A stretch of 63,454 nt of DNA, filler included, from Craspedostauros australis (Eukaryota): the NCBI GenBank assembly GCA_030167865.1. It is 10 parts of 10 records of this genome, joined end to end, with 100 filler letters (N's around TTAATTAATTAA, not from the genome) between each part and the next. Parts side by side here need not be neighbours in the genome. Positions count along the whole stretch, not along the records: positions 35,977 to 45,924 come from JALAGF010006246.1; 9 more parts are not named here. The stretch is one strand, 5' to 3'. Each line of letters begins with the position of its first letter. Positions within the stretch are counted from its first letter, which is position 1. Shown in pieces: positions 21,792-56,282 of this stretch. The position numbers and the translations under genes were made by a program. The notes below the pieces were generated by a model. The model did no database searches. It was not told the DNA's origin and worked only from the letters and a program-made list of their open reading frames with translations.

Positions 21792-24700
21792 AGAGACTGA
21801 GGACGAGACCAATGTCGACGAGAGGAGCTGCCGGGATTGTCGCCGCATCCGGCTTCAGGATACCCAAGAAGCCACCAGACCCGACGACAACAACTGTCAA
21901 GTTCCTCACCGACGTCCTGGGGTTCACCGAGGCGTTTGTCTACCTCCTGCCGATCTTCAACACCAGAGATGCAGCTGAAGGGTTGAACATCAACCGCGTT
22001 CTTCGCACGCTCGGATTCTTCGCTCGCAGCGACCTTGGCATTGTGATCCCAATGCTCCGTTGCCCTGTCACATGCATCATGCTGAAATACGACTTTGGAA
22101 GGCTACACCAATTCGGAAAGTACCTCGAGAAAGACGAAGCTGATGACGTCGATAAAGCAACCATCTACGAGCCAAAAGCAGAGGACATCACGTATGACCA
22201 GTTTGAGGCATTCTGTGACACGTGCCTTCCACCCATGGGATCGATATCCACAGCGGTTGTCAAGAACGATGGATACAATCGAAAGAATGCTGAGGCATGG
22301 TTTGGTGTGGAGGAAATCCTTCCCAGCCAGTGGCTCGAGTACATGAAGAAAGATGCTGCAGGTGACGACTTGGTGGAACTCTACAGCACCACAACAACAC
22401 TGCCATCCGTACCTGGACAGACAGGCACTGCAACAGCCACCAAACAACCTATTGGTCACACCGCAACATCGACACCGGTTGTAGCCAATACGCCAGCAAT
22501 GGCTGAGTACCACACACAACGCAATGACGGGACTGTGCCATACCGTGTTGGGCAGAGCCCAGACCCTCCAACCACATCACGGCATGCAACATTCGATCCA
22601 TTTGCTATCCGCACTGGTGATCCACTTAATGCTGCTTATCGTGTCCCCATTCGGCCACCGGGCTCCACACCCAATCGCGTCGAACACATGACACCACCAA
22701 ACCCAACAGCATCAACACCTCATACGCCAGCCTTCGCACCAATACCGAACGCGCCACGTGGCGTTCCCATTGCACCATTGCCCACACATGTGCACACCAG
22801 CCCTCCGCCAGCCATGGCATCCGCTCGTCCTGGTCTCGACCATAGCCCACAAAGGACGTCAACCACATCGAATGTGACGCCGCCAGTTGCAACAAGACCA
22901 TTGCGTCGCCCACACAGTATCAACCCAAGCTATCACTATGATGAAGAAAAAGGATTTCAAGTCTTCCGCAGCACGTTCAACTCGTTCCTACGACTCAACC
23001 ACATGAAGTACCTGACGGAAGACACCTTCATCACTCTGTACAAGGCGATGCAGGAAGCTGCACTCAATTACTATCGCGACCCGAAGACGAAGAAACCCTT
23101 GGCGATCACCGAAGACCAAGTTCAACGTGACGTTGTCACCATGCACGCTTTACTGCAACAATGCATCCAAGGGACGTCCCTCGCCTGCCTCCTTCAGCCT
23201 GACCACGACGACGGCGTCTTACTGTGGGATGCGATGGTTGCAATGGCTGACAACCCAGCGTCACGCAAGCTACGCATTGCCCAGCTGGAAGACCGCATCC
23301 TGCGGCGTGCAGCTCCAAACGAAGCTCTTGATAAGCTCGTCTCCGATGTGAGGCTTGATCTTGCTCAACTCAACGAGCACAGTACCGACCATAACCGACT
23401 GTCTGACGACGTCAAGACCCAGCGTCTCTATCGCTTGATCCGCAGCACGGGGAATCAAGACTATGTCAACATCGTTCGGGTCTGTGAAAGTATGAGTGCT
23501 GATCGGACGTTCGAGGACATCTGCAACTATATCATTGGGGAAGCTCGGGCCTCGATTGCAGTTCAAGACGCACTCCATGCACGCCAAGCTCGTCCCGCCA
23601 ACCGCCGGCTTACCAACAACCTTACCACGGCACAGACATCCGTCTCCTGGGGTGACGAGCTGCCCATTCAAGAGGGTTTTTCCGGCCTGACCATCTCCCA
23701 GACCACTGATCGCCACGTCGATGACGTCATGTCTGTTGCTCAAGCAGAGTTACAGAAGGTCGAGAGGGACGACACTTACATCCAAAGCGAGGATTATCGT
23801 CGCCTCCCGGCATCCGTAAAACGTGTCATCCATCTCTTGCGCAACATGGTCAAGCAACAAGGGAGACAATCGCATCAGACGGCTCATCCGCCAGCTGCAA
23901 CGGCAAAGCCGAACCCCATCAACCAGACGACAACCAACCAAATGCCAAAGCAGTATGCAACATCTCATGCACATGTACAGCATCAGACATCTGCACAAGA
24001 GTATTCCGACGACAGCGAGTACTATGACTCGTCGTATGACACAGAAGACGAGCAGACAGACATGCAGAACCACCTTACGGAGGCATATGAATCTCGGTAC
24101 TACGTCAATATGGTTCAAGTGTGGGCAACACCGGAGGCACTTGACCCAATCGATCCAGGGCCGGATGATCCGATCATTAACATTCCGTCCGAGCAGCTGT
24201 TGGTGAACTTAGCTGGGCATGATCAACATTCGTATTCCATATGCGATAATGGAGCCCAATGTGCAATCCTTGGCGGTAAAAACAACGCATGGACTGTGAC
24301 CAGTCCTGACTCCCGTCGCACCTATAACATCGTTGGTGCTGTGCCTTCTCACATGAAGAAGAATGGGTTACGCGTCGTGTCCGCTAAGACAAAGGTGAAG
24401 TTGACGTCGGGTGAGTGGGTCCTTCTGCAGGTGCACGAGGCAGCATACAACCCAAGTGGAAATGTTACCCTTCTGTCGGAATACCAGCTCAGGGAGGCAC
24501 GGTGTGTTGTTGACTCCGTATCTACCCGGCACATCAAATCGCTCCAGCCGCGTACGTATGGCACACAGACGGTGTACATCCCTGATGGTGGCAAGATTCC
24601 ACTCATCGTCCGCGGTGCGATGATGACATTCGACATTCATGAACCGTCTGAGCAAGACCTTGACGAACTGCGTACTGTCGATATCACACTGGAGTCTTGC

Positions 24701-27700
24701 TGGAATCCGAGAGACCACAACACCGAGACGGACGCACTTGAACCTTTCCAGCTTGGGGTATCCCGCTCCGAGGCCAAGACCATTGCTCCTTCACCTCCCC
24801 CTGATCCTCCTGCGATGGTCAACATATCACGAGTGATCAGGTACGCTGACGTACCAGGTTCTGCCAACATACCACCGGGCGATCCGGATCCTGGAAAGGG
24901 TGATGCGATGCTCCAAATTGACTACGAATCGTTGACACCCAACATGTCGCAACCATTTGTCAGCACGGACGTCGAGCTCATGGAGGCGAATGACGGTCCT
25001 CCGGTTGACTTCTTCCTGAACAACTTGGACTACGACACGATCACAGGACGACATGGTGAATTCTCTTTTGATTCACTGGCGTATGCGTCGTTTGTCTCAC
25101 GTGGATTCCGGGAAGGCGGCGACCTTGCCCTCTACACCGCGGCGATGCGTCCCGTCAGCGAGCATGACCGCATTTGGATGGCAACTGACAACGTCACCCA
25201 TCTGGCAGAGAGGGGCGCGTTTGGATCCACGTTGGTCACCGATTCCGCGCGACTATGGGATCCCGGATCGGGTCCATCCACGGACGCGGCCAGCGACCGC
25301 ACTCCCGTTGCCAGCAATACGACCAAGACAACGAGCGACCATGCTGTATCCGACTACGATGACCTCTCCGATTCGCTTCGGCAAGACAGGCACTTGCCTG
25401 CAGAACCGCCCAACGCCATGCAACCGTCCGATATGCATGATGTTGGCTTCAGGTACCAAGCCAAGCACAAAACTGATGACTTAGAAAAGATCAGGCCATA
25501 TCTTGGATGGCGTACCACCCGGATTGTGCAGGAGACTATTCGCCGCACCACTCAAAGCTGCAAAGCGGTGATTCGGTGGCCTATGATGCGACACATCAAG
25601 TCACGCTTCTCGTGGATGAGACGACCCCGCCTTCGTGAGGTTGTTGCCATTGACACTGCGTTCTCCAACGCCCGATCCTATGAGGATGGATTCACATGCA
25701 TGCAACTCTTCTTCGGCATGACCTCGCATGTCATCAACATCTATGGCCTACGGTCACGTGAGGGGGTGATTCATTCAATCAAGGACTTCATCAGGGAGGA
25801 AGGTGCCCCATGGGCCTTTCGCATGGACAATGCTGGTGAACAGGCCAGTGAGGATGTCAACAATGTGCTTCGCGACCTCCATATTGGTGTGGAGGCCATC
25901 GAACCCACCTTTTCGCAACAGAATCCTGCGGAACTACGAGCTGTGAAATGGATCAAGCGTCACACTCATGTTCTACTGGACCGCACTGGTGCACCTCCGC
26001 GTGCTTGGTATCACGCTGCCAGATACATCGCTGATGTTCACAACATCACGGCAGACCAATCCTTGCGTTATAACATCCCTCTGACAATGCGCCATGGTGA
26101 AACTGTTGACATCTCTCCCTTTCTTTCATTTCGGTTCTATGAGAAAGTGTACTACCACGATCCTCAGTCGTCCTTCCCTGATGCTACTGAGAAGCCTGGC
26201 TATTGGCTTGGGGTTGCTCATTCCTGTGGGGATGCCTTAACCTACTACGTCCTCTCTGACGACACACAGCGGGTCCTCGTTCGAAGTGTTGTTCGCCCAT
26301 TCCGTCCCAGCCAGCGAAACGAACGACTTTCGTTTGCGCCAGAGCTCGATCCGGATGTCCAGCATGCTGAGCCTGAGGTGCCGCTCCATCTCAGTCATGA
26401 GCGTGTACCGGTTGCAAGGAAGCTTGCTGAATACCGGAAGCCACCCAAGCGGACCACGACAAAGAGACGACGTCCCCGGAAGGCCAAGCGTGTGGAACGG
26501 GTGCCCGCCGGTGCCCCACCGCCAACGACCGTGCCCGCTCTCGCCCCTGCCACCATGGGTATGGCCCCGGGTGCAGGACCTCCTGTGATGGCAGTGCCTG
26601 CCACGAAGGCTCCTGCCCTTGCCCCGCCGGTGCAGTCGCCCATTCCACGCCATGCCCGCCCACCTGATGTTCAGGGGCGCTCCCCGGCCACCATCGACGC
26701 ACGCACGCCTCGCCATGGTCGTTCGCACCCCCAGCCGGCACGTCGCTCTGGCACTGCCCTCCCGGTCCAGCCTTCTGCTGCCGCCCTCACCGAACCCGCC
26801 ATCTCGCCTTCGCCTCGCATGCCGGTTTCAGGGGGGGTCCCCTTGCCTCCTGCCACAGCTCCATTGGTACGGCCAGCAATTGGTGGCCCACCTTCACTGC
26901 CACAACCGCCGCCGCCGCCACAGCAAGGTGATCCACCTGCGAGTGCTCAACCAGCTGCCCACAAGCCACCTCTAACTCGCCCACCGACGCACAGGGAGGC
27001 AACGCCGCTGCCCACACGACGGTCTGCTCGGATCAAGCGACGCAAGAAACGTGCGTTCGGTTTACAGGCTCTCCAGGCCGCCATCGGCGAAACCCTTCAT
27101 GCGACACAAACACTGAATGGCATACCATCGAGGGTTACTGGATACACGATGCGGAACTATGTTGAGCCAGCCACATTCCTTGGAGCACGGTTGCACCATG
27201 ATCATGCCGACCCAGACCACGCCCGAGAACTGCTACGCCGTGCGGAGGAACCCCGGTCACCTTCCTGCCACCTTACCCGCGACGAGTTGTCACACCTGCA
27301 CTATGTGCAACATGCCGACTACGCGGAGGACATCATCAACAATATGGTGGACGGTAGCGACCTTTCCCGCACCATCGCATGCATAACCCATCACCGACAG
27401 GTCAAAAGAGGAAGTGAGGACCAACACTGGCGCGTTCGGGTACAATGGGCAGATGGGCACACAACATGGCAACGTCTCAATGATGTACGCATGGACAACC
27501 CATTCATTCTCGTACAGTACGCTGAAGCAAACGGACTCCAACACCAATCACCATTTCGATGGACGAAGGCGTTGAAGGAGGACAACGTTACACTGAAACG
27601 CAGACTGATCAATATGGCAAAAGCAAAGAAGGCATCGAGACGCGGAGTTCGGTTCAAATTCGGTGTACAGATACCAAACAGCGTCCGTCATGCTCTGTAT

Positions 27701-29488
27701 CTCGATCGAGTCAACGGCAATAACGATTGGCGTGAGGCATTGGATAAGGAGCTTGGCAAGATCAATGAATTCAAGACATTCCGACAAGTCACTGAAGCTG
27801 ACAACCTGTCCGAATACACAAAGATCCCGTATCATGTGATATTCGACGTGAAATTCGACCTTCGCCGGAAAGCCCGTCTTGTCGCAAACGGTAACCACTC
27901 CCAGCCATCCACAGAGGACGTGTATTCTGGTGTGGTCGCCATCGACACCGTGCGCATTGCTTTCATCGTTGCAGAAATCAATGGTCTCATGGCATGCGCC
28001 GGAGATGTTGGCAATGCATTCCTGTATGCAATGACAAAGGAGAAGTGCTACATCATCGCAGGTCCAGAATTTGGCACCTTGGAAGGACAGCCCCTTATCA
28101 TTCACAAAGGCCTCTATGGGCTACGAACATCCAGCGCCCGGTTTCATGAGCATCTTGCCTTTCGCATCCGTTCCATGGGGTTCAAACCTTCGCAGTACGA
28201 CTCTGACCTCTGGATCCGTGAACGAGATGATCACTATGAAATGATTACAACTTATGTTGATGACGTGCTTGTATTCAGTCACAAGCCCATGCAACTAATG
28301 GCTCATCTCAGCAGCGAATACGAGGTCAAGCAAGTGGGCACACCAGTGTACTACCTTGGTGGCGACGTTGTGACTCTTGGAGAGGAATGGCAACGGTATG
28401 GCATCAGAACAGCCTTGTCAGCAAAGACATACATCCAGCGAGCACTCACCAGGCTGGAAACAAATGAACGCAAGCTGCGCACATATGCAACGCCCATGGC
28501 TGAGTCCTACCATGCTGAGACCGATGACACAGAACTGCTCGATGCTGACGAAGGTAGCCGATATCGATCCCTCATCGGATGTGCAAATTGGGTTATCACA
28601 CTTGGTCGGTATGATATTCAATATGCAATCATGGCGCTCTCTCGGTTTTCCATGGCGCCACGCAATGGCCACATGAAAGCATTGGAACGTGTCTTTGGAT
28701 ACCTCAAGTCCCATGCCAATGGAAAACTGCTCTGCGATCCGCACGTTCCCGATCACAACGACACACCTGACCCCAACAACGACAAATGGATTGAGTATTA
28801 TCCTGATGCGTGTGAGGAGATCCCACACACCATGCCACCACCAAAGGGGCGCTCTGCTACGCTCACGGTCTATGTTGATGCCGACCACGCTCACGATTTG
28901 GTTACAAGGAGATCTGTGTCAGGTATCATCATCAAAGTGAACGGAATGGTCGTACGAACTCACTGCAAACGACAACGGACAGTTGAATCATCCACATACG
29001 GCTCGGAGTTGGTTGCAGCACGAACAGCTGTTGACATGATCATCGAAATACGAACAGCACTTCGTATGATGGGAGTTCCATTGAGAGGGCCCGCATATTT
29101 GTTTGGGGACAACAAGTCCGTCATCCTGAATACCTCCATCCCATCTTCTGTCCTCAAGAAGAAGCACTGTGGCATATCATACCATCGCATTCGCGAAGCC
29201 ATTGCTGCCGGAATCGTACGGTTTACACACATTGCATCGAACATGAATGAAGCGGACATCTTGACGAAACCATTGGGCAAAGCTGCGTTCGAGAGACTTC
29301 GACGTGTATCCCTCTTTCGCATTCCCCCCCACACCATCACTGCCACCCAGAACAAGAAGCAAAAGAACCAACAAAAGGGCGACCAAGATCCAGTTGAGGC
29401 TACCACCAATCACATTACAAGCCATGCCAAACGATACTTTGTGAGGATTACAACCTTTGATGACTGCCAGCATCGAGAAAGGTTATAA
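21792..29488 (+). CDS. Intact single-ORF gag-pol polyprotein of a CoDi-I-like Ty1/copia element (about 2560 aa)
   Basis: Uninterrupted ORF; first ATG at about 21812 (MSTRGAAG). PR CDNGAQ; INT AIDT / MDNA / NPAE; chromodomain-like segment; RT KARLVANG, YVDD; RH YVDADH, ESSTYGSE, ADILTKPL. Confidence 0.95.
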
Positions 29489-30561: not shown

Positions 30562-30661
30562 NNNNNNNNNNNNNNNNNNNNNNNNNNNNNNNNNNNNNNN
30601 NNNNNTTAATTAATTAANNNNNNNNNNNNNNNNNNNNNNNNNNNNNNNNNNNNNNNNNNNN

Positions 30662-33600
30662 GAGCGTCAAGCCTCGGAAGCACATGAATTTGCACCACCG
30701 CTGCCATTCCTTCCACCAGCCGCTCGGGAGGCGGTCAGGTTGGCTCGCCCATTGATTGGGCAGGGTCGACGCGGCGATTCCGTCATGCGCCTCCGCCAGT
30801 ATTCTCGTTCCGTTAGCCGACGTGATGTCCGACATTCGTATCACACCCAGCTTCTGACGCACCATATTCAGATGGTATAACTGAGCTCCTTTCACACCTT
30901 GGCTTAGCCAGATGTCCATCAAGAACTTGTCACCTCTCCGCTGGCGAGTCGCCGACTTCGTGGTTTCGAGTATGTCTATGCTGGTGTCGTGAAGCTGCTG
31001 CCAGAGTCCGGTGACCCAGCAACTCGTGGCGCAGTGTCCTATGGCCTTGTGTGAGTACCGGAACAGGGATCGCTCCACTCCCAGCTCCTCTTTCAAGGCC
31101 AGAATAGAGCACTTGATCATTTCCCCGGTTTGAGTGCCACGATGGACTTCGTCGAATGCCAGCTGGACCTGCGAGATCAACTGCATATTGGCTGGGTTGA
31201 TGATTCCCAGCCCGCCCAGTGACGTCGTACCATATACCAAGTCTCTCGGGAAGTTCCTGGACACCCCCATTTTCGGGAGTGCTGCGAGCAGCGCCGGGGC
31301 CATGATCCGTCGCCATTGTAGCCGAGTAAGCTGAACCATTGGAAGCGCGTATTCGATCGTCTTCATGAACCGCAGCGTGAGGGCAGATCTTGCGTCGGCT
31401 GGAGAAATCTTAGCCGTCCGCATGCGTCCCCCAAATTCTTCTGCTTTCTTGCGGAGTCTGTCAGCCTGCGCTTCTTGATTCCCGTCGAAGTCGATGAACA
31501 CCCCCAACGTGAAGAGTGGCTGGTCCATTGGTTTGTATGGTATTTCCGCTGCTGCGCCTTGTCCATCGTTGATATTGATGATGGTCAACGGGTTGGCGTC
31601 TTGCCACGTCCATTGCCCTGAAATGAATTCCGGTTGCATCGCCCACCAGGCGGACTTACTCGGCACGAGAGCACCGCCGGTAACGTGCAGCAGCTTGCTC
31701 CAGTCTTGTACCATCGCCTTGAAAGCTTCCGTGTCTGCCGTCACTGTGCCACCTGTTTCCAGCCTCACTAGGTCCGTGTCGTCCACGAAGGCTGATCCCA
31801 GAATTGAAATCGTCTGCTCGTCAGGGGTCTGTAGCGGCGAGTCATGACCAAGGAGGCCCATGGCATTAAACATGACGGAACTGATGACCGCCCAAATAGC
31901 CGGTCCTGCCCCGTTCCCTTGGCCAATGCCGTGCATCTGGCAATCCGCGCCGCGACCATATGATCTATCCGACACTCCGTAGGCGGTGCTGATGTGGTGC
32001 TTTGCGTCTCGGAGCGTCTTGAACATGCTTCTCGTCGCCGATCTGTTCGCTCCGGCCGCCATCATCACCGTCGCCGCGAAGTTTGGTACTATCCTGTCGT
32101 AGCAGGATTTCGCGTCGTTGGAGCAGAATGAGACCGCCACTTTCCGCTGGAAACCCAGGTCGATGCTGATACGCTTGTTCAGCGCTGCGCTGATTGCCGA
32201 CCTGCATTTGCGGCTACCAAATTGGAATCCCGAGAGCCATCCTGCTTTCTCCGCAGTTTGCATCATTTGTCGTCCAAGTCTTTTGTTGTTCAGATTGAAC
32301 TGCGCGTCCATCAATTGTATGGTCCTCATCTTCTCTATGTTGAAGACTTGCGCCTTCTTCAGTATCTCGACGTCGGTGATCCGTTGCCATGGTCTCGGCG
32401 AGTGGCCTGTTTGGTACGGAATGTCTCTCAACATCATATCGGCGTCTGCTAGGCTCTTGACAGACATCGCTGCTTTGTAGTGTCCGAAGTGCGGCGTGCT
32501 CGGTTCTGAGTTCGTCAGTTCCGTCTGTCGTTTCCATGCCCGAATGTGCTCCTCTGTCGTAAGTTCCTCCTTGTCTTGTGCAATGGGTTGCAAGGACTGC
32601 AGCAGGGCATGAGTCATAGGATCCGGCACTTCTGGGGTGGATCCCTGCGCGTTGACAAGTTGTGTCTCCAGTGCCGGGTTCCAAATCCGGTCCATGATCC
32701 TTTTCGTCTGGCCCGTCATGCAAGGGGTCTGGTCTGCTTGGGAAAATCGTCGTTTGTTTTCCCTTATGCACGCTGTGACGATGTCGTGTTGTTCCGTGCA
32801 TTCCTGCAATCGGCCTTCGTCATCCGTGAATAAGACCTTCGTCGTCATCGACTTGTCTTGCCCAAACACAGCTCGAAGGCGTCCCGCTTGTTCCCGTTGT
32901 TTCTCTCGATTCATCAGGGATTGCAATGCCGCTTCATATTCCTGCTCATGGGCGTCGTGTCGTTGCCTGGCTAGCTGTACCAGAAACTCTTGGCGGGCCT
33001 TCTCGTGGTCCTTCTTTTGCTTGTAGTATGTGGTGTATGCCTCCGATCGGCGTTGTTGTGCCTGAGGCAGAGTCTCCCCTACCTCCAGTCCCACCAGCTT
33101 CCGTGTGCGGCACCGGAGCGACGAGCTGACCTTGACCCCTGCCAGGTGTTTGACCTCCAGGGACCAGTGTTTTATCACGTTCCTTGCGTGTTGCAGTTCT
33201 GGAGACCAGGCGGCCCCTCCCATCTTCAGCTTGCGACATCCCTTCTCCGCGTGTCGGCGGATCTCGTATGTTTGAGTCAGAAGCTTGTCGTATTGACGGC
33301 GTTGGTCGTGAGTCAGTCTCCACCCTTGGGTCTTGGCTGTGAGCCACATCTTCTGTGTGCGGTCAAGGATGTTGTGTCTTCCGTATTCTTCTAGAAGCGC
33401 ATCATTGTACCGTTGCATAACTCGGGGATCACTCAGCACAAGACGGCGTGGTGTGGACTTGCGAACGGGTTTGATACCTGTTCCCAATACCTGATCGAAG
33501 CTGATGTCGATCCACACCGCTCTGTGATCGGACGGGATCGCTGCACCAAACTCCAGGTAGCCGGCTTTCTCCAGAATGACTCCTTCAGAGGCGAATATCG

Positions 33601-34381
33601 CGTCGATAGGAATTCCACTGCGGTTGCGTTGTTGTGTTGCACGGCGAGATAGGTCTCGTCCTATCCGTTTCTGTACCGTGTTTCGCAACCCTGCGGCCTC
33701 GAGGCGTTTGGCGGTAGGGCTGTCCATGACGTCGTCATTCAGGTCCACTCCTAGTACAATGGTGTCGCCCTCCGCTTTCCACTTGTGTATCTCGACGGTT
33801 ATGTCTGTGATCCAGGCTTCGTGCGGGTCCTCTTCTCTTCCGGTCTCGTGCAGTACTCGCGTTTGTTGTGCCCAGACCGTGGTGGCTCCCTCGGTAGACC
33901 GGCATGGCCTATAGGCTGCGATGACTCGCAATCTCTTGGTGCCTTTCCCTTCCGTGAGAGTCCAACACCACCGACCCATACCACTCTCATCGGTTCCAGT
34001 TTGGAATGTGCGTGCGGCCATTTGCGCCGTTACGACCACCCCTGCGCCTCCGTACAGTCGCGGGTCTCTTTTGTCTTCGTGTGTGTTGTAGGCAAAGGAG
34101 TGTTTGGATCGGGGTAGCTGTCGTCTGGATCGCTCTGCCCACTGGTCGTGCGGTCGTGCGTGATCCCAACGTATGTTGGTTTCTGCCATGCATAGCATGT
34201 CCAAGTCGCTCGATTTGATGAACCCGAAGATTTCCTCGTTCTTCTGCTGGTACGTGTGAATGGGTAGCTGGGCTACGTTTTGGTACACAATGCGGATCGT
34301 CGCCTTAGCCTTCTCCGTCATCGGATCCCCGCAAGCATCGTTTAGCCTACTTGCTGCATCAAGCGCCTCCTGGTCTGTCAT
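30662..34381 (-). CDS. Non-LTR retrotransposon ORF2: AP endonuclease plus reverse transcriptase (Ambal-like), 3' partial
   Basis: APE motifs YQNV, MAETN, GMGRW, AAYRPC, VDLND, IDAIF, SDHRAVWID; RT motifs EKMRTIQL, QFGSR, NDAKSCYDRI, GIGQGNGAGP, FVDD. No stops. Confidence 0.93.
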
Positions 34382-35876: not shown

Positions 35877-35976
35877 NNNNNNNNNNNNNNNNNNNNNNNN
35901 NNNNNNNNNNNNNNNNNNNNTTAATTAATTAANNNNNNNNNNNNNNNNNNNNNNNNNNNNNNNNNNNNNNNNNNNN

Positions 35977-36857
35977 GCAAAGAAACCAGTACCAGTGCGA
36001 GAATTGTCATCCTCGTTTGACTTCCCACCACCAACGTTGTTTCCCTCCGCATCACACTCCAAGGTTTGCAACAGCTCGGCGAAGTCCTTGGGATTGGGAA
36101 AGTCCTTGATGGAGTTTTGCAGATGCAGGTATTCACGCGGCTTCCCACTCAGCACTCCGCCGACGACGGGTACGACGTGGCGGATGAAGAAGCGAGCGAA
36201 GTACCCCAGAATGCCCGACGTCTCTGGATCTGGTTCCGAAAACTCCAGCACGCAGAACACCGCATTCGGTCGCAACAACGTATGGATTTGGCAAAGGGCA
36301 TCCTCGCGTTCTGGAACGTTGCGAATGCCAAATGACATGGTGGCGCCGTCAAACAGTTCGGCATCCTCGCCTTGCTGCTCACGATACGTCGCCACCAACT
36401 TGCGCGCATCCGCCACGCGTAACGAGATGCGATCGGCCATGCCGCGATGTGACACCTTGTCGCGTCCTACATCCAGCATGTTCGACGACGGATCCACGCC
36501 CACGATCGTCGCATCGGGCATGGCCTTGCCCAGCAGCAGCGCCACGTCGGCCGTGCCCGTCGCCACATCCAGCAGCCGGCGTGCCGTCGTTGTCTTGCGC
36601 TGCACGACCTGCACCATCTCCTCACGCCAACCAATGTCCATGTTCATGGCCAGCACGCGGTTGATGGTATCGTAGCGCGTCGCGATCTGATCGAACATGC
36701 TGCCGGTGCCAAAGTCGGTCGGCGGCGTTGCGACGGACAGCTTGCGGACCTGGTACGTGAAGATGCCCAGCAGGGGCATGATCACGATGGCGGCCTTGAC
36801 GGTCCAGTTCAATTGCAGCGGCTTGGGCTGGCGCACTGGGATCGCGTTGGACGACAT
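35977..36857 (-). CDS. UbiE/MenG/COQ5-family SAM-dependent methyltransferase, 3' partial
   Basis: MFDQIATRYDTINRVL, LLDVATGTADVA, GVDPSSNML, SFGIRNV, VLEFSEP, YLHLQNSIKDFP; hydrophobic N-terminal segment. Confidence 0.92.
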
Positions 36858-37414: not shown

Positions 37415-40400
37415 TCAGGCCAGATGCGAAGGCAGCACTTCGTCCGACTGAGCTGTTGGTGCAACATCCGTGATGCCATCCCCAACGCCCACCAACAGAT
37501 GCTGGGGTCCGTGCTCCATGAGCCGCGCAGCATCATCCAGGACGGGCTCCCTCACCGCTCCCATCACGCCGCATTTCTGGTGCAGCACGCCGCTCACATA
37601 CGACCGCACCAAGGTCAAGTGCGCAAACGTATCGTGATGACCCGAGATGACGGACTCGTCGATGACGCATCCATCCGCGATGGTGATGTGCGTCGGCTCG
37701 TAGGCGCGGCAGGCGAAGTAGAGCAGGCGTCCCTCGACCTTGATACCCTGAAAGCGCAGGACGCCGTTCATCATGGGCGTTCCGGATAGCACCCAGGTGA
37801 ACGACCAGACAGAGACTGACCAGCAGAACGACTGGTACACCATGTACAGAGCGAGGCACCACGGCGTCGTCCGCTTGTCGGTTCCAAGGAACGTGATGCA
37901 TTCCAGGATGCGCAGCAGCACGGTCCACACCGCGGACTGNACGATGATGCATGCCACGACGGCTGGAACTGCATCGGANGGCGTCTGCGGCTTGATCAGN
38001 CTCATCCATAGTTCGTAGGCTGGGATGAAGCTGCCTGCTACCACCACGAGCATGATGCCGTACAGCAGCGTATTCGTCGCCATGAGTATCACATGCTCAC
38101 AGAGTGACAAGGGCATGTTGCGCGGATGGCGCTCCGACCGCACCACATTCTCCGTGATGTGCGTTTGTGGCGGCACCACCGAGTTTCGGATCTCCACACC
38201 TGGTTCGGCAACGGTCATGATGCCGATGCTGCTGTCTTCGACGGTGATCTTGGCATACTCGTTGCCATCCTTCACGCACGGGTTGAAGACGGAGATGAAG
38301 GACCGTCTCACGGAGACGAGGTCCACCTTGGACGGGAAGAATTTCTCTGCGAACACCTTGGATGTCAAATCAATGTCCATGCCAAGAGCCATAAGGATGA
38401 GATTCCAGATGATGGAGTTGAATGTCAGTCCGTAGAGGATGAAGCACCCAAGCGTGAAATGAAAGTCACATGCCCAGTCCGCAAACTGCGAAATGACACT
38501 CGTGCTTGCTTTTCCGGGCCGCTTCTTCCCGATGAGCACCCATTTGAAGAGGATGCTTGACACGAGGAGGAAAGAAGATGTGAGCCCAAATAGCACAATC
38601 CAGTATTGCAACTTGGAGTATCGCCAGATTGGGAGCTCATCGCGGACGAGAATGTCGATGGTCAGAAAGCAAGTGAATGCAAAGTACAGCTCGATGAGCA
38701 GCCAGATAATCTTCATGGCGCCCAGTGCGATCCATTGGGAGTCGTTACTCGGTCCTGCGGCATCTATGGTGCCGCCGTCCTCACCCTGTGGATTGTCGTC
38801 ACTGTTCCGTGGATCCGTCACAGGAACGTTGACATCGATAAACCCAGGATTCCCTTTGATCACAGTGTTGGGAGGTGCTTGCGCACCTTCGACCAGCACT
38901 GCGAGGTTGCACACATGGCAGGAAGATCCAACCTTCGCGCCGGGGCACAGAGTGCCGTTGACCGTCGCATTGGCTCCGATTTGGATCTTGCGGAACCTCA
39001 TGCTGGGGCCCAGCACGCCGTCTTCCCAAGCGCCGAACATGCGGCACCGGATGGCTTGGGTCGCTTTGGCATGGGCACCCATCGTCACGAGATCAAACTC
39101 TCGGATGCATGAGTCGATACGCGACGATCGATGAACGTTGGCGCCCATGAGGTAGCAGAATACTGTCATGAGCGGCGTTCCCAGGACGAAGCGGCCAACG
39201 AAAAGTTCCCACAAGTGCATCAGCCGATCTACGAACCACCATCGAAGGAAATAGATGCTTGTTTGGTGGATACGTCCCTCTCGATATCTGCCGATGACAA
39301 TCCATTTTGCGAGAACAACCTCGATGGTGAGTGTGAGGGACCAGAATGGGATGACGAGTGGATACCACACCCAAAGGTACGGGGAGAAATCGATGAAGAA
39401 GAGCACATGGGTGCGGTTGTCGTTGACCAGCACCCTGCCGATCTCAAATGCAGGAATGATGGGCAACGCGAAGATGAATAGGACGGCGAGCGCGCCGATG
39501 GCCTGGATGAAAGCGATGGTCGGTTGTGACAGAGACTTCTCGTTTCGCACTGTCTGGATCCTTTTGAGCGTCGGGAGGTTGGTCGGAAGTGGCTGCCCGA
39601 TGGATGCTTCGAGGTAGGTCTTGAGATCAAGAACCGACGGAAACATCTCGAAGCAGTTGGGGGGAATGACGGTGTTGTATCGCCGTGCGAGGGACTGCCG
39701 AAGCTCGAGCTCCATCATGGAGGAGAGTCCGACATCTTTCCATTTGTCTTCGGTCTTGACTTGTGACCCAGTGACGTCCTTCACGATCTCGTTGAAGTCC
39801 ATATCTTTGATGTCGAGGTCTTGGATACAGGACTTTCGCAACGAAAGACGCTTCGATTGAGATGCCAGGTCGCCATCGCGTACGCTGAAGAAATTAGACG
39901 TTCCGATCACGTCCAGCACCATCTTCTGAGTTCCATCATGAAGACGTTCGCGGTTGCGTCTTCGTTGAATCTTCCCGCTAGTCGTCTTGGAGATGGTGCG
40001 CTCTTCCACAGCCGTTACGGTTGCCGGTGTCAACCCAATCTCTTCCATCACAGCACGCTTGATCTCGTTGCAGACCGCTGCTGCTTCCTTGGCATGAGAC
40101 GATCGAATCTCGAACACGATTTCCAACCGCCCGTCGTTGCCTGATTCGTCTGATGAGAATGCCGCTACGCAGCCTGGACGGACAGCGGGCGATGCCTCTT
40201 CGACAGCATGTTCAATGTCCTGTGGGTAGTAGTTGACACCGTTAACAATGATGACGTCTTTCTTGCGTCCACAGATGTAGAGGTAGTCATCTTGGTAGAA
40301 GCCGTAGTCACCGGTTCGGAGGTATGTTTTGGCTGGAGCGCCGCTGTTGTCGCTGCTGCTACTTTTGCTCGTGTTTCTGTCTGTGCTGCTGCCGCTCGAC

Positions 40401-41998
40401 GTTGCGGTATCACCAGCCGGGTCGCCCTGCAACAACACTGCTCGGAATGTTTCCGAAGTGAGGCCAGGTTGGTTGTAGTAACCAGCTGCCATCGACGGCC
40501 CTGCGATCCACATCTCTCCCGTTGAATTGTCTGGCACTGGCTCACGTGTCTCTGGGTGCACGATGATGATATCAACGGAGTAGTGCAGAGTGTCGCGATG
40601 GGCGATGGCCACGAACGGATGGAGATCTTCGTCTTCACGGATGGATGATACCTGGAATCCTTGCTGATAGCTCACGCCAACCACGTTCTCCGCCAGGCCG
40701 TATCCAGCCATGAACCACTCCTTGCGCAAGCAGTGTGGACTGAATGCTGCGGAGAACAGTTCAGTCGTATCCAAGCGGATGGGCTCCGCAGCGTTTTGGA
40801 AACGGAACATGCTTGATAGATCGAGGTCGGGGATGGGATCCGAGCGATCGCCTCCTCGTGCCTTGGCCTCGTTGAACTTGCGAGTAACCAGTCTGTAGCC
40901 AAAGTCGGGAGCGACTGTGAAATGGCACTTGTGCTTGGAGATGAGATCCATCCAAAGCAATGGATTACGGATGAAGGAAACCGGTGACATCATGTGCGCA
41001 CGGAAAGCGCCCGCCAATGGAGCGATGGTCAGCTGGATCAGGCCCAGGTCGTGGTACTGTGGCAACCATGAAAATGTGGTGATGCGCTCGGGCAACTTAC
41101 TCATGTCACCCAAATCGTGTTCAAGGCACTCTAGCCAGCCACTGTGCAGCAGTTCAATGTTTGCTCTCAATGCATCGTGGGTGACCATCACACCCTTCGG
41201 GTTTCCCGTGCTTCCAGATGTGTATTGGAGGAAAGCAATGTCGGAGCCTTCAATGTTAGGTTCATCAAAGGATTTCATTGTCATTGTCGACNAAGAAGCC
41301 CACGAACGACTGGAGATGGCACGGGACAGAAAGCTCCTGCGCGGTCGTTTCGCACTGTTCTCGTGTCCGGCAAACGCATCATGGTAAATGATGCGATCGG
41401 TGACTTGAAACTTCACCCCGCTTGGCCACATGGCGCGGCTCTTCGATACTGGGTTGGCTCGATCGGCGGCACGGAGCATGGAGATGGTTGTCTGGGTGAG
41501 AATGAGGGCTGGCGAGCAATCCTCGACCACCTTGTTCATCTTGGCCAGTGACTTGACGAGCGGAGGTCCCGGAGGATAGACCAGCACGGCAGTCACGCCT
41601 GCGCGGAGACATCCCAAGAATACCGCGAAGAAATGGAGTCCGAAGTCGTAGCAGAGAACGACGCGGTCGCCCTTGTTGACGCCCCACTTGTTGCGAAGAA
41701 GGTGGGCGCACTGTCCAGCTTCATCCCAGATCTGTTGGAAGGTGTAGTTATTGACTGCCTTTCCCTTCTCATCGTACCAAGTGGAGAAGACGAGGTCGGA
41801 CTTGAGTTCGACGATGAACTTGAGATGGTCGACGAAAGACTTCTCCTTGATGGATTGGTGGATGATCTTGTGGCCGTTGCCCATGGTGGTATCGGAAATG
41901 TTGTTGGGCTCGGTGGCCTCAGTCTTCGAGCCTCCTTGCGGGGATGCTTGGGCTTGAAGGTCGATGGCTCTGTTTGTCATATCTTTGGTGTCGTCCAT
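37415..41998 (-). CDS. Multidomain FAAL - acyl carrier - membrane/left-handed beta-helix x3 protein (Pls/PosA NRPS-terminal-domain-like)
   Basis: FAAL motifs complete (QYTSGSTG, WLPQYHDLGLI, YGLAE, LRTGD, KTTSGKIQRR). Carrier motif DVGLSSMMELEL near 39720. Then TM pairs, AKWIVIGRYREG...YFLRWWFVDRL, LMGANV, DLVTMG, KIQIGANATV...GNPG, with two further degenerate copies (FKWVLIGKKRPG; LRFQGIKV...ITIADGCVID...ISGH). Confidence 0.88.
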   Translation of the reverse strand: MDDTKDMTNRAIDLQAQASPQGGSKTEATEPNNISDTTMGNGHKIIHQSIKEKSFVDHLKFIVELKSDLVFSTWYDEKGKAVNNYTFQQIWDEAGQCAHLLRNKWGVNKGDRVVLCYDFGLHFFAVFLGCLRAGVTAVLVYPPGPPLVKSLAKMNKVVEDCSPALILTQTTISMLRAADRANPVSKSRAMWPSGVKFQVTDRIIYHDAFAGHENSAKRPRRSFLSRAISSRSWASXSTMTMKSFDEPNIEGSDIAFLQYTSGSTGNPKGVMVTHDALRANIELLHSGWLECLEHDLGDMSKLPERITTFSWLPQYHDLGLIQLTIAPLAGAFRAHMMSPVSFIRNPLLWMDLISKHKCHFTVAPDFGYRLVTRKFNEAKARGGDRSDPIPDLDLSSMFRFQNAAEPIRLDTTELFSAAFSPHCLRKEWFMAGYGLAENVVGVSYQQGFQVSSIREDEDLHPFVAIAHRDTLHYSVDIIIVHPETREPVPDNSTGEMWIAGPSMAAGYYNQPGLTSETFRAVLLQGDPAGDTATSSGSSTDRNTSKSSSSDNSGAPAKTYLRTGDYGFYQDDYLYICGRKKDVIIVNGVNYYPQDIEHAVEEASPAVRPGCVAAFSSDESGNDGRLEIVFEIRSSHAKEAAAVCNEIKRAVMEEIGLTPATVTAVEERTISKTTSGKIQRRRNRERLHDGTQKMVLDVIGTSNFFSVRDGDLASQSKRLSLRKSCIQDLDIKDMDFNEIVKDVTGSQVKTEDKWKDVGLSSMMELELRQSLARRYNTVIPPNCFEMFPSVLDLKTYLEASIGQPLPTNLPTLKRIQTVRNEKSLSQPTIAFIQAIGALAVLFIFALPIIPAFEIGRVLVNDNRTHVLFFIDFSPYLWVWYPLVIPFWSLTLTIEVVLAKWIVIGRYREGRIHQTSIYFLRWWFVDRLMHLWELFVGRFVLGTPLMTVFCYLMGANVHRSSRIDSCIREFDLVTMGAHAKATQAIRCRMFGAWEDGVLGPSMRFRKIQIGANATVNGTLCPGAKVGSSCHVCNLAVLVEGAQAPPNTVIKGNPGFIDVNVPVTDPRNSDDNPQGEDGGTIDAAGPSNDSQWIALGAMKIIWLLIELYFAFTCFLTIDILVRDELPIWRYSKLQYWIVLFGLTSSFLLVSSILFKWVLIGKKRPGKASTSVISQFADWACDFHFTLGCFILYGLTFNSIIWNLILMALGMDIDLTSKVFAEKFFPSKVDLVSVRRSFISVFNPCVKDGNEYAKITVEDSSIGIMTVAEPGVEIRNSVVPPQTHITENVVRSERHPRNMPLSLCEHVILMATNTLLYGIMLVVVAGSFIPAYELWMXLIKPQTXSDAVPAVVACIIXQSAVWTVLLRILECITFLGTDKRTTPWCLALYMVYQSFCWSVSVWSFTWVLSGTPMMNGVLRFQGIKVEGRLLYFACRAYEPTHITIADGCVIDESVISGHHDTFAHLTLVRSYVSGVLHQKCGVMGAVREPVLDDAARLMEHGPQHLLVGVGDGITDVAPTAQSDEVLPSHLA

Positions 41999-52800: not shown

Positions 52801-54790
52801 CATCTGCTCTGCGAGGGCAGGACGGTTGAGTTCGGCACGGAAGCACAGATGATGCAGTGGGTCCACTCCATGACTGCCGTTCACGCGGAAGTCAAGGCGC
52901 GGCGCCAATCCAGGTCAATGCATGTCAAAAGGCGATCAATGGCATCTTGGCTCAGGCTGGGTGAGTGAGTAAGGACTCTCTGAAAGCTCGCTCAAAGCTG
53001 GCCCCACAAGGCTGGTGGTGGCGAGGGTAATGCCTACTGGCACATTTCTAATGTATTCCCTGAGTTACGCTTATTGTTGGGGGGGNNNNNNNNNNNNNNN
53101 NNNNNNNNNNNNNNNNNNNNNNNNNNNNNNNNNNNAACGCGCTATGCTCAGCCTTTTGAGTGTGTGTACAAGCATCATGGAGTAGCTGGCCATATGCGTC
53201 ATGCTTGCGTCATGTCATTCGGGGCTATGCTAGGTAGGTGTATGCATTCTCGAATGTCTTAGTATCGTGGTTGATGGTGTTGAGAGTGGGACTGGAAGTG
53301 ATTGCAGCTGTGAGAATTGTGATTCATCACAGTCCATCCATGAGTGTGACAACAAACATCAGAGAGTAGCCTCCCACATGTGTTGCGGATATGCCCTACC
53401 ATGCCATGCGGCCTGTACGAGGTATGTGTATGCATCATGGAATGTGTGACTGCAACAGTTGTTGGTGTTGAGAGTGGACCCGGTATTGGCTGCAACTGTG
53501 AGACTGAACAATCAATCATGGTCCTCCATTGACTGTGGCAACTAGCATCATGGAGTAGCCAACCGCATGTGCCAGGGATGTACCATACCCAGAGGGCTGA
53601 TAGGTATGCGTATGCAGTGTAGTATGTGTGATGAATGTTGTTGATGGCTTTGAGAGCAAGACTGAAGTTGACTGCAGCAGCGCGACTCAGCAATGCGCTA
53701 CGCTAACCCTTTGATTGTGACAACAAGCATCATGGAGTGGCCGGTCGCACACACCATGCTTCATCCATGTCATGCTGGCTGTGCGATGCGTGTATGCGTT
53801 GTGGGATGTGTGATAGATGCTGTTGATGATTCTGAAATGGGGACCAGCAGCGATCACAACTGAGAGATATCATGATCCACCAGGACCGATCTTTGAGTGT
53901 GTTAAGAAGCATCATGGAGTAGCTGGCTGCACATGCCATGCTTGAACCATACCCAGCGGTCTGTGAGGTATGATCATGCGTTGTGGGATGCATGATAGAT
54001 GCTATTGCTGGTGTTCAGAGGGGGCCATCACTGACTGCGGCTGTGAGATTTGGTTGTCCATCATGGTCAGCTGTGGATTGTGATAACTATGATCATGGAG
54101 TAGCTGACAACATGCACCACACTTAATCCATGTGATGTGGGTTGTGCGATGTGTGCATGCGCTGTGAGATGGGTGAATATTGCAGTTGATGGTGTTGAGA
54201 GAGGGGGACTGGCAGTGACTGCATCTGTGAGACTTGGATATTCATATTGGTTTATGTTTGAGTGTGACAGTGATTATCACAGTGAAGCCAGGAGCATGTG
54301 CAATGCTCATGCAATGTCATGCGTGCTATGGGACGTGTGTATGCATTGTGGGATTTGTGAGTATCGCAGTTGGTGTTGAGAGGTGAACCATAAGTGATTG
54401 CATGTGTGAGACTTCGTGATCCACCATGGTCTATCATGTAGTGTGACAATGAGCATCATGGAGTAGCCAGCTGCATGTGTCACATTTGTATCATGTGAGG
54501 GGGTTCTGAAGTGTGTGTATGCGTTGTGAGATGTGCGAATGTTGCTTGTTGGCGGTGATGAGAGAGGCAACAGAAGTGACTGCAACTTTGTCACGCTGGG
54601 ATCTGTCATTGTCCATTTGTGATTATGCCAATCAGCATCATGGAGTAGCCGACCATATGTATTGGGGATGGTGCATGTAATGTACACTATGAGATGTGTG
54701 TCTGCATTTCAGGATGTGTGAATATTACTTGTTGTGGTGTTGAGAGATGGGCCAGAAGTGACTGCAACTGTGAGAGTGAACGATCAATCA
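49839..54790. repeat. Subtelomeric satellite, about 183-bp diverged monomers, interrupted by a LINE fragment
   Basis: AGCATCATGGAGTAGC-like anchor near 49848, 50029, 50214, 50395, 50588, then 53171, 53356, 53543, 53726, 53908, 54090, 54272, 54452, 54634; shared GTTGATGGTGTTGAGAG and GTGACTGCAGCTGTGAGA. Confidence 0.9.
50704..53073 (+). mobile_element. 5'-truncated, decayed non-LTR retrotransposon (RT C-terminus, RNase H, CCHC), related to 30662-34381
   Basis: QVQIAFEETQTGTTTGQMVECSIQALKEELG matches QVQLAFDEVHRGTQTGEMIKCSILALKEELG; RNase H SDGSFK, YRSELAGI, WVRGHQD, LNVVAD; CQFC..E...H...EC; stops at 51172, 51220, 52653 and frameshifts. Confidence 0.9.
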
Positions 54791-54832
54791 GTATCGCTGC
54801 AATGCAATGCAAGTCTTTCCCCCCTCCTCTGC

Positions 54833-55348
54833 AGTCAGCCATTTCATGGGACTTGTGCCATCCTCCAGTAGTTGGAATGGTGTTGACTTCCCCCTCCTCC
54901 CCCACAAGTCAGCCATNNNNNNNNNNNNNNNNNNNNNNNNNNNNNNNNNNNNNNNNNNNNNNNNNNGTAGTTGGAATGGTGTTGACTTCCCCCTCCTCCC
55001 CCACAAGTCAGCCATTTCATGGGACTTGTGCCATCCTCCAGTAGTTGGAACGGTGTTGACTTCCCCCTCCTCCCCCACAAGTCAGCCATTTCATGGGACT
55101 TGTGCCATCCTCCTGTAGTTGGAATGGTGTTGACTTCCCCCTCCTCCCCCACAAGTCAGCCATTTCATGGGACTTGTGCCNNNNNNNNNNNNNNNNNNNN
55201 NNNNNNNNNNNNNNNNNNNNNNNNNNNNNNNNNNNNNNNNNNNNNNNNNNNNNNNNNNNNNNNNNNNNNNNNNNNNNNNNNNNNNNNNNNNNNNNNNNNN
55301 NNNNNNGCCATTTCATGGGACTTGTGCCATCCTCCTGTAGTTGGAATG
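54833..55348. repeat. 74-bp near-perfect minisatellite
   Basis: Unit GCCATTTCATGGGACTTGTGCCATCCTCCWGTAGTTGGAATGGTGTTGACTTCCCCCTCCTCCCCCACAAGTCA starting at 54838, 54912, 55011, 55085, 55159 and about 55307; copy number hidden by gaps. Confidence 0.95.
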
Positions 55349-56057
55349 ATATTAACAATAGTTCATTTGATGTTGACAGATAGTTCATTTGCCATTGACG
55401 ATGTTCATCCGCCATTAACCATGTTCATCTCACATTGACCATGTTCATCTCACATTAACATGGTTGCACGTGTTATCACTTGTTGTTTGTGTTGTACTCA
55501 TGTATCACTATCTCCATCACCAAGTCGATTCAGAGTGTGGTTCTTGATGTCACACGTGCGTATGGTCGTGGTGAACACGTGTGTATGCTTACATGTACAT
55601 GACAGTGTGTATTGCAAGTACTGGTTGATGTTGTGTACTTTGATCATCAATATCTCACCTTGTCGAGGTCCGTTGAAGATGGTAGAAGTGTTGACGTGTA
55701 CGTATGGACGTGGTGCGTGTGTGTGTACACATAGATGTACGTGAACATGTGCACGTCATGATGTATCGTGCTGTACATGTTTAACACGGTGTATCGCGTG
55801 GCTCGTAGTATCACGTGTTGTTTGGGAGTTGTGGATGATGAACATTCGTCCGCACTTTTGGGGAGTTGCGGATCATCGACATTTTCCATACAAAAACGTC
55901 CGTCCTTCGACCGTCAGTATTGCGTGCCCATACAAACGTCTGTACGTCATCCGTCAATCGACCCAAACTTCGGTCTGGCCGTCGTACGTCACCGTGTTAA
56001 ATCCTCGTACATTAGGGTTTGATTGGTTGCACCTGCGGACACTATTGCGGCTATAGC

Positions 56058-56182: not shown

Positions 56183-56282
56183 NNNNNNNNNNNNNNNNNN
56201 NNNNNNNNNNNNNNNNNNNNNNNNNNTTAATTAATTAANNNNNNNNNNNNNNNNNNNNNNNNNNNNNNNNNNNNNNNNNNNN

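Follow-up and report, generated by a model that had tools for sequence, protein, structure and literature searches.

A predicted FAAL-loaded relative of the Pls/PosA synthetases encoded in one open frame of Craspedostauros australis

Characterised FAALs mostly load plain fatty acids, and FAAL-like domains can also load aryl acids. Among acyltransferases built on the beta-helix, LpxA and LpxD receive their acyl group from ACP. The hallmarks of a FAAL, in the part of the eLife 2021 survey available, are a FAAL-specific insertion and helix, a blocked CoA pocket and a proline-lined alternative pocket. The epsilon-poly-L-lysine synthetase Pls of Streptomyces albulus and the delta-poly-L-ornithine synthetase PosA of Acinetobacter baumannii have, in the sections of their descriptions at hand, a carrier and then a module of ~700 residues, in which six transmembrane (TM) helices form three pairs and are accompanied by three beta-helix domains in tandem, a layout that the protein considered here resembles. 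The sections of the PosA paper at hand predict the same anatomy for the bacterial domain and note a likeness to sugar-nucleotide acyltransferases.

The gene and its loading domain

The whole stretch of DNA analysed, here called the window, is 63,454 nucleotides long. Positions 37415..41998 on its minus strand, to which all features of the gene given below also belong, are a single uninterrupted frame that starts with ATG and encodes 1527 amino acids and a stop, comprising a FAAL, a carrier and three repeats of a TM pair plus beta-helix. A preliminary description of this DNA had given an intronless ORF of exactly this extent, and it is called intronless because a single open frame can be aligned with relatives from one end to the other; with one of these (P0122) there is 46% identity in a single stretch covering C-terminal residues 2-700. 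Four single N in the ORF DNA (37940, 37979, 38000 and 41292) result in X at residues 236, 1333, 1340 and 1353. A co-linear near-identical contig of 955 bases has 37 differences to the gene and 0 gaps; the near-identical contigs together have 58, and of the 40 of these that are listed, third codon positions account for 24 and synonymous changes for 23. We read the frame as an intact nuclear gene from an alga of diatom type.

The window also contains Copia-type and LINE-type ORFs and a DDE transposase, and the gene is in a transposon-rich stretch. Next to the gene is a decayed, truncated paralogue with an in-frame stop (991..2943).

Judged by sequence, the N-terminus is FAAL-like, nearer to FAALs than to acyl-CoA ligases or A-domains. 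Its core (residues 82-508; 40475..41755) has the motif WLPQYHDLGL and matches Pfam AMP-binding with E 1.7e-56 over profile positions 19-384 of 384; the best NCBIfam and PDB matches are FAALs, and phmmer also labels the loading domain FAAL. The top NCBIfam matches are FAAL families at 238-280 bits, with typical FACL models at 132 bits or less (NF005850, named a CoA ligase, scores 245) and the amino-acid adenylation model TIGR01733 at 122 bits, though curated FAAL cut-offs were all missed, the best being NF006624 with 280.3 bits against a cut-off of 600. PDB sequence comparison gave 134-253 bits for solved FAALs, 57.9 for the FACL FadD13 and ~71 for NRPS A-domains; McyG is among the structural-database matches of the domain. 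A Ser/Thr-rich low-complexity insert (residues ~520-556; 40331..40441), missing from both the truncated paralogue and the solved FAAL 7r7g, lies between the core and a C-terminal subdomain (residues 581-681; 39956..40258), which has an A10-type TSGKIQR lysine motif and is identified by PF23024 (AMP-dom_DIP2-like, E 1.9e-08) and by alignment with 7r7g. The stretch after YGLAE aligns with 7r7g, the best solved FAAL, but in this pairwise alignment is 14 residues shorter. With an AMP-binding core and a FAAL/DIP2-type C-subdomain, the earlier designation as a complete FAAL is upheld.

Carrier and membrane module

The carrier (ACP/PCP-like, residues ~731-801; 39596..39808) is barely visible to Pfam, with PP-binding (PF00550) at 737-796 scoring 18.3 bits, under its gathering score of 20.8. 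In the AlphaFold2 model, where its pLDDT is ~90, it matches ACP/PCP structures with Z 9-10.3 and rmsd ~2 over 68-72 residues (for model residues 11-82, 7m7f_B gives Z 10.3 and rmsd 2.1 over 72 residues). In GLSS the second Ser, Ser760 (codon 39719..39721), corresponds to that of the GGHS motif of bacterial Pls. It is conserved at 97, 93 and 100% in the three groups that make up an alignment of 61 rows extending from the clade of this protein to Pls/PosA-type rows loaded by an A-domain, and it is the predicted phosphopantetheine attachment site. A four-helix carrier fold with a conserved Ser at the start of helix 2 is supported by the model despite the sub-threshold Pfam score, and so the GLSS carrier earlier proposed is retained.

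In hydropathy and in the AlphaFold2 model the C-terminal ~700 residues have six TM helices arranged as three pairs, and a left-handed beta-helix comes after each pair. Unit 1 (residues 820-1085; 38744..39541) consists of TM1 (~825-859), TM2 (~879-902), KWIVIGR...RWW and beta-helix C1; unit 2 (residues 1086-1295; 38114..38743) of TM3 (~1086-1118), TM4 (~1128-1156), KWVLIGKKRPG and beta-helix C2; and unit 3 (residues 1296-1510; 37469..38113) of TM5 (~1299-1331), TM6 (~1343-1369) and beta-helix C3, all as delimited by hydropathy, the model and homology between units. Profile-profile comparison finds the units mutually homologous (probabilities 99.2, 98.7 and 96.4%). The three tandem units of the preliminary description are thus borne out; of the KWxxIG...RWW signature that it ascribed to them, unit 1 has the whole (K898 W899 ... 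W920 W921), unit 2 a part (K1152 W1153, W1175) and unit 3 none. The absence of KS, condensation and thioesterase domains that it reported agrees with a Pfam search, in which no such family was found at E ≤0.1.

The model, which covers residues 720-1527, has a mean pLDDT of 89.9 and a pTM of 0.91, with 652 of 808 residues at or above 90. Its best structural matches are the beta-helix acyltransferases 4m98_A, 3ect_A and 3srt_A (Z 11.8; model 215-336, in unit 1), and Foldseek returned maltose/galactoside O-acetyltransferases (1ocx_A, 5u2k) with probability 1.00; Pfam LbH matches are weak (E 0.0013). The Pls/PosA model TIGR02353 matches with E 3.8e-19 and 68.5 bits, its curated cut-off being 423.1. 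Similarity of residues ~830-1527 to Pls or to beta-helix proteins, which had been put forward for checking, is found, to Pls in the TIGR02353 match and to beta-helix proteins in the structural matches. When a bacterial Pls was compared with the PDB, matches ended at residue ~615 and no solved Pls-type C-domain was found.

Clusters of Lys and Arg are immediately behind TM2 and TM4 (KWIVIGRYREGR, KWVLIGKKRPGK), and the first ~100 residues have no hydrophobic N-terminal segment (top 15-residue hydropathy mean 0.85); both fit a cytosolic location of the catalytic side. Within C3, His1454 (codon 37637..37639) is kept in 97, 100 and 100% of the same three alignment groups, bacterial Pls with its THLFEDR included, and units 1 and 2 have other residues at the matching positions. 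By conservation, and by analogy with beta-helix acyltransferases, it is the candidate general base of the transfer.

Family and distribution

There are 958 representatives of the family at E ≤1e-3 and 94 at ≤1e-30. Among the 25 closest, the NRPS-type AMP-binding_C (PF13193) is found in 0 and PF23024 in 13. A FastTree tree of 162 C-domains, a biased sample, puts 69 of the 70 rows labelled FAAL on one side (support 99) and all 91 A-domain rows in one group (support 100). The protein is on the FAAL side, where the FAAL-type clade has a long branch (stem 1.01), in a clade of 48 rows with at least 9 of the 10 Seminavis robusta paralogues. It scores below the TIGR02353 cut-off, with a C-domain placed outside the amino-acid-loaded clade, and so, as far as sequence comparison goes, it is from a FAAL-loaded sister family of Pls/PosA and is not a member. 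The likeness of the C-terminus to Pls in the preliminary description accordingly stands, as homology outside the family proper.

The named FAAL-type relatives checked by domain content all come from Seminavis robusta, which has 10 named paralogues among 120 matches, or from a eukaryotic transcriptome collection, in which complete relative ORFs are present (P0188). Some relatives have extra FAD/amine-oxidase-like, hydrolase or KS domains (P0021, P0136, P0125, P0237). An 896-residue sequence of the pelagophyte Chrysophaeum taylorii (P0039), outside the domain-typed set, gives a weaker, partial match.

The preliminary description mentioned FAAL-ACP-beta-helix fusions in plants and bacteria, and placed the likely novelty in function and not in architecture. 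Such fusions could not be confirmed: the typed relatives are from the diatom and the eukaryotic transcriptomes, none of 80 bacterial FAAL loci has a Pls-like domain within up to 3 kb beyond the match, and other odd architectures are described in the accessible part of the eLife 2021 survey, with the FAAL-carrier-Pls-like fusion not among them. A literature search found no paper on such a fusion. The architecture itself may thus be undescribed. No characterised orthologue was found in the databases and literature searched, nor any biochemistry of FAAL-type members in that literature.

Acyl transfer, its alternatives and known systems

The reading of the whole that we favour, with a confidence a little better than even, is of an enzyme that activates, carries and transfers on one polypeptide, with FAAL loading and acyl transfer at the membrane. 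The FAAL domain would adenylate a lipophilic carboxylic acid, by family similarity most likely a fatty acid, and the acyl group would pass to a phosphopantetheine arm on Ser760 of its own carrier. The acyl thioester would then be taken by the C-terminal module, modelled as a pseudo-trimer of three left-handed beta-helices on a six-helix membrane bundle, with the beta-helices presumably on the same, cytosolic, side as the FAAL and carrier. There His1454 may serve as general base, as in beta-helix acyltransferases, for transfer to an amine or hydroxyl acceptor, and the product might stay in the membrane or, more speculatively, pass through the helix bundle. The family probably makes an acylated lipid or polymer. 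Of the transfer or polymerisation of the acyl unit earlier envisaged, single transfer is more likely: a plain fatty acid lacks a second nucleophile, which points to one transfer per cycle, and it cannot chemically be polymerised unless it bears a second functional group.

That objection would fall away were the FAAL to load an amino- or hydroxy-fatty acid whose free end the Pls-like module extends iteratively, with export of the polyamide or polyester through the helix bundle. Homology of the C-domain to proven polymerases extends along its full length, and in the portions of their descriptions at hand these likewise have six TM helices and three units; the extra domains of some relatives could functionalise the chain. 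Such a polymerase is nevertheless unlikely in view of the long FAAL-type branch, the clade-conserved D924, R925, R966, E967, C985 and R986 that differ from Pls, the loss of the acidic THLFEDR context of the His, and the plain fatty acids that characterised FAALs mostly load. Far more improbable is a true cationic poly(amino acid) synthetase, whose adenylation domain, although FAAL-like in sequence, would activate a diamino acid: C-domain homology to Pls/PosA speaks for it, but every comparison of the loading domain (FAAL models against TIGR01733, solved FAALs against NRPS A-domains, PF23024 against PF13193 in the closest relatives) goes the other way, as does the position of the C-domain outside the A-domain-loaded clade.

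Acyl transfer might also have a housekeeping form, in which carrier-loaded fatty acid is put on a membrane lysolipid, or on the head group of another membrane lipid, to recycle or tailor membrane lipids, as with Aas. The logic is that of the bacterial proteins, mentioned in the available parts of FAAL surveys, that join a lysophospholipid acyltransferase to a FAAL or an acyl-ACP synthetase, and the catalytic module is membrane-embedded. This form is doubtful, as the acyltransferase is of beta-helix and not PlsC/LPLAT type and the strong expansion and diversification in Seminavis looks more like specialised metabolism than housekeeping. A decaying or silent copy with no present function is what the mobile elements and the stop-containing paralogue in the window would suggest; the 4.6-kb frame is, to the contrary, fully open with every conserved motif kept, and differences to near-identical contigs favour synonymous sites, making this very improbable.

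Returning to the described systems, the protein and Pls/PosA have in common KWxxIG after TM pairs, a GTP...GAxI motif where each beta-helix begins and the nearly invariant His of unit 3. The identity of its C-domain with bacterial ones is 16-19%, a GHxxxY-like sequence surrounds the His in place of the acidic Pls context, and the loading domain is of FAAL type instead of an NRPS amino-acid A-domain. FAALs (FadD32, FadD28, FadD23, those of E. coli and Legionella, and PKS/NRPS loading modules) are by far the best sequence matches of that domain, with WLPxYHDxGL and TSGKIxR aligned and a carrier in cis, but here a membrane beta-helix module follows instead of a KS or condensation domain, and the Ser-rich insert separates the subdomains. 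Each soluble unit has the fold of beta-helix acyltransferases (LpxA, LpxD, PglB/PglD-type, maltose/galactoside O-acetyltransferases), with three helices packed together and a His as candidate general base. Unlike in those enzymes, a single chain forms the whole trimer, only one His is conserved, six TM helices serve as the anchor, and the activating enzyme and the carrier are part of the fusion. Aas and the FAAL-LPLAT fusions, in the accounts available, follow the same logic, in which a free fatty acid is activated, loaded on a carrier and handed over at the membrane with no use of CoA, but do so with an unrelated PlsC-type fold in place of the beta-helix and with a carrier that is usually a separate protein.

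The reading frame with its loading and carrier domains

The gene at 37415..41998 on the minus strand is a single open frame of 1527 codons with an ATG start, and four isolated N in its DNA leave residues 236, 1333, 1340 and 1353 as X. A chance reading frame is rejected, as the frame extends for 4.6 kb and is homologous over its full length. The preliminary description had credited its product with a complete FAAL and with no KS, condensation or thioesterase domain, and both statements hold. Pfam detects AMP-binding at residues 82-508 (E 1.7e-56, covering 19-384 of the 384 profile positions), a FAAL/DIP2-type C-subdomain at residues 581-681, and none of the three other domains. FAAL families take the top NCBIfam ranks (NF006624 with 280 bits; FadD32, FadD21 and FadD28 with 200-247 bits), against at most 132 bits for ordinary acyl-CoA ligase models and 122 bits for the amino-acid adenylation model, every NCBIfam match of the domain falling short of its curated cut-off. 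The order is the same among solved structures, where the FAALs 7r7e-g (253 bits), 3kxw (237), FadD32 (184-194), FadD23 (176), EcFAAL (174) and FadD28 (136) stand ahead of the non-FAALs, FadD13 with 58 bits and NRPS A-domains with about 71. The segments WLPQYHDLGL and TSGKIQR align with a solved FAAL. A Ser-rich insert, residues ~520-556, lies between the two FAAL subdomains.

The carrier domain is weak by PP-binding in Pfam (18.3 bits at residues 737-796, where the gathering score is 20.8), but residues 731-801 have a carrier-protein fold in the AlphaFold2 model, with structural matches to 7m7f_B (Z 10.3, rmsd 2.1 over 72 residues) and 2cgq_A (Z 10.1). Its GLSS serine, S760, aligns with the GGHS Ser of bacterial Pls and is kept in 97, 93 and 100% of the three row groups of a 61-row alignment, and so the carrier and serine first noticed in the sequence are borne out.

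The membrane beta-helix module

Residues 800-1527 are homologous to TIGR02353, the Pls/PosA model (68.5 bits, E 3.8e-19), yet below its cut-off of 423.1. Six membrane helices, arranged as three pairs (~825-859/879-902, 1086-1118/1128-1156 and 1299-1331/1343-1369), are indicated both by hydropathy and by the model. The AlphaFold2 model of residues 720-1527, built from 61 aligned sequences, has a mean pLDDT of 89.9 and a pTM of 0.91. Its soluble parts resemble left-handed beta-helix acyltransferases (4m98_A, 3ect_A and 3srt_A, Z 11.8), with a Foldseek probability of 1.00 against maltose and galactoside O-acetyltransferases, and the three units are mutually homologous with hhalign probabilities of 99.2, 98.7 and 96.4%. 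The proposal of three tandem units of membrane helices plus beta-helix is thus upheld. A PDB sequence search with the C-terminal 728 residues gave just two marginal beta-helix matches (E 0.15 and 0.27), and with a bacterial Pls query the A-domain and carrier region were matched and nothing past residue ~615. Foldseek and VIA-align returned no chain spanning the membrane bundle or more than one unit, which is not evidence for a new fold.

Several positions are common to rows from the window protein's clade through to the A-domain-loaded Pls/PosA-type: S760, W920/W921, D969, D1226 and H1454, the trios K898/W899/G903 after the second membrane helix and K1152/W1153/G1157 after the fourth, and G952, G1206 and G1418, each of which opens a beta-helix. 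Domains, domain order, homology and conservation are established for the protein. H1454, in unit 3, occurs in 97, 100 and 100% of the rows of the three groups. The unit-to-unit alignment has residues other than His at the corresponding positions of units 1 and 2, and the pseudo-trimer therefore probably has one active site, by analogy with LpxA, LpxD and PglD-type enzymes, where a His deprotonates the acceptor. D924, R925, R966, E967, C985, R986 and R1003 are conserved in the FAAL-type clade only, and the acidic THLFEDR context is lost there; these clade-specific residues and the lost context suggest a changed acceptor site.

Relatives and genomic surroundings

A word-indexed search with the C-terminal part as query listed 120 matches. 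The best 25 have E values of 1e-56 or lower and identities of 29-36%, and they are followed by a gap down to E 1e-30, where the bacterial Pls/PosA proteins start. PF23024 is in 13 of these 25 and in none of the 95 lower-ranked matches listed; the NRPS-type PF13193 is in none of the 25. Ten named proteins among the best 25 are from Seminavis robusta, with the automatic names DltA or FadD21. An exhaustive search gave 958 representatives at E <=1e-3, 94 of them at <=1e-30. The closest, P0122 (1534 residues), has 46% identity, and P0188 and its kin, from a eukaryotic transcriptome collection, form a more distant FAAL-type group. Some relatives have extra domains between or beside FAAL and carrier. 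P0021 and P0136 have FAD/amine-oxidase-like regions, the latter also having a second AMP-binding domain; in P0125 an alpha/beta hydrolase follows the Pls-like module, and P0237 has a KS. The eLife 2021 FAAL paper mentions plant FAAL-like domains beside HemY-type domains.

For the phylogeny, each row was labelled from its N-terminus, which was scored against the window protein's FAAL and against the A-domain of a bacterial Pls, the higher score deciding. FastTree was run on 162 full C-domains; rows whose C-domain is incomplete were set aside, as were 20, mostly truncated at the N-terminus, in which no loading domain could be recognized. One side of the tree holds all 91 A-labelled rows (support 100) and the opposite side 69 of 70 FAAL-labelled rows (support 99), the exception being the long-branched P0092. 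The split is clean despite a biased sample, all rows having been harvested as matches to the window protein or P0188, and despite the generosity of FastTree support. The window protein falls with P0122 in a 48-row clade on the FAAL-labelled side (stem length 1.01), apart from every A-labelled row. A scan with P0188 as query was drawn to the FAAL motif and gave 80 bacterial FAAL loci, none of which had a Pls-like C-domain (tblastn E <=0.01, three C-domain queries, up to 3 kb past the match); this negative is weak and does not prove that the fusion is absent from bacteria.

Directly downstream of the gene is a UbiE/COQ5-type quinone methyltransferase (35925..36857, minus strand; TIGR01934, 170.8 bits, above the cut-off of 158). 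Its top matches have ~60% identity, and the few organism-named ones among the 120 listed are diatoms with 53-55%, such as Mayamaea pseudoterrestris with 53%. A bacterial contaminant is rejected on these diatom relatives and on the Copia, LINE and ankyrin frames in the window, whose parts need not be genome neighbors. The window is eukaryotic, with a diatom or a near relative as its likely source. The transposon load comprises a DDE transposase frame (7967..9109, minus strand), two Copia-type reverse-transcriptase (RVT_2) frames on the plus strand of 1525 residues (13743..18320) and 2575 residues (21761..29488), and a 1255-residue frame with a LINE-type endonuclease domain (30614..34381, minus strand). 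A truncated second FAAL copy on the plus strand (991..2943, frame 901..2673) matches the main protein over residues 43-718 with 67% identity. Its frame is broken by a stop at 2671-2673, at a position that is Glu in the main gene, the similarity stops ahead of the carrier domain, and the copy is probably a decayed duplicate; right after it, in the same frame, is a 498-residue ankyrin-repeat frame (2962..4458, plus strand).

The stretch 54001..58000 is AT-rich (GC 0.37-0.43 against ~0.52 elsewhere) with many masked runs. N totals 2511 in the window, including nine paired runs, all of 44 N, 12 bases and 44 N: 9113-9156/9169-9212, 19245-19288/19301-19344, 30562-30605/30618-30661, 35877-35920/35933-35976, 45925-45968/45981-46024, 49739-49782/49795-49838, 56183-56226/56239-56282, 57702-57745/57758-57801 and 61322-61365/61378-61421. 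Filler of 100 letters joins the parts of the window, as after 9,112, 19,244 and 30,561; the paired layout in itself suggests a single recurrent element that has been masked, not assembly gaps. The remaining runs of N measure 50 or about 100-180 bases.

Possible chemistry and kinship to known systems

In the mechanism judged most likely, with the balance tipped somewhat in its favor, a lipophilic acid would be adenylated by the loading domain, the acyl group then loaded on Ser760 and, assisted by His1454, transferred to an acceptor amine or hydroxyl on the membrane's cytosolic side, and the product let go into or across the membrane. We infer its substrate class, catalytic residue and single-turnover logic, and also the topology, the latter because of the positive-inside rule and the absence of a signal peptide. 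Polymerization of bifunctional fatty acids is an unlikely alternative use of the same domains, and lipid remodelling of the Aas kind is given an equally small chance. Far less probable is that the gene is a decaying copy. In sequencing run X1 (8% of sampled words; its RNA label is a guess) contigs cover only 39041..40297 of the window, and one of 955 bases is ~96% identical to it, with 37 differences and no gaps. There are 58 differences from all X1 contigs, and the 40 listed include 24 third-position and 23 synonymous changes, which argues against decay. A true poly(amino acid) synthetase is the least credible alternative; the protein is outside Pls/PosA because it misses the cut-off, has another loading domain and is in a separate clade.

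Returning to acyl transfer at the membrane, a bolder and rather improbable extension is that FAAL-loaded Pls-like enzymes are a eukaryotic, diatom-expanded family making acylated products, exported at the membrane, of a class not seen so far. These could be polyamines or amino compounds bearing an N-acyl group, or else functionalized fatty acids linked as polyamides or polyesters, passing through the six-helix bundle. If so, the paralogue burst seen in a benthic raphid diatom, in which the loading domains have diversified, would be a repertoire of surface, adhesion or signalling chemistry, and the top rank of diatoms in eukaryotic FAAL counts would be explained. That rank is from the available part of the FAALPred survey (2026), which gives 16 for Seminavis robusta; the same text has no 'Pls' or 'hexapeptide', nor attachment partners of diatom FAALs. 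At least 10 named Seminavis proteins have the Pls-like module, and therefore much of the FAAL excess may be this fusion family. Other odd architectures listed in the eLife 2021 paper are LPLAT fusions and, in plants, HemY-FAAL-catalase. Literature searches found no paper linking polylysine synthetase with FAAL or diatoms, none for TIGR02353 and none for Seminavis with carrier protein ligase, though the supplementary tables of the FAALPred and eLife papers might list the architecture.

To our knowledge, cationic poly(amino acids) are the sole known products of Pls-type membrane synthetases, and a large sister family whose loading domain is of the fatty-acid type would bring lipids within their chemistry. 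The family is a concrete, testable way into diatom lipid and polymer products, and a second, divergent lineage in which to study how the unsolved Pls C-domain catalyzes transfer. In the PosA paper the bacterial domain is predicted to have six bent helices below three beta-helices, with packing like that of sugar-nucleotide acyltransferases. The C-terminal module of the window protein has that same anatomy, and the whole resembles a hybrid, a FAAL loading module joined to a Pls transfer module.
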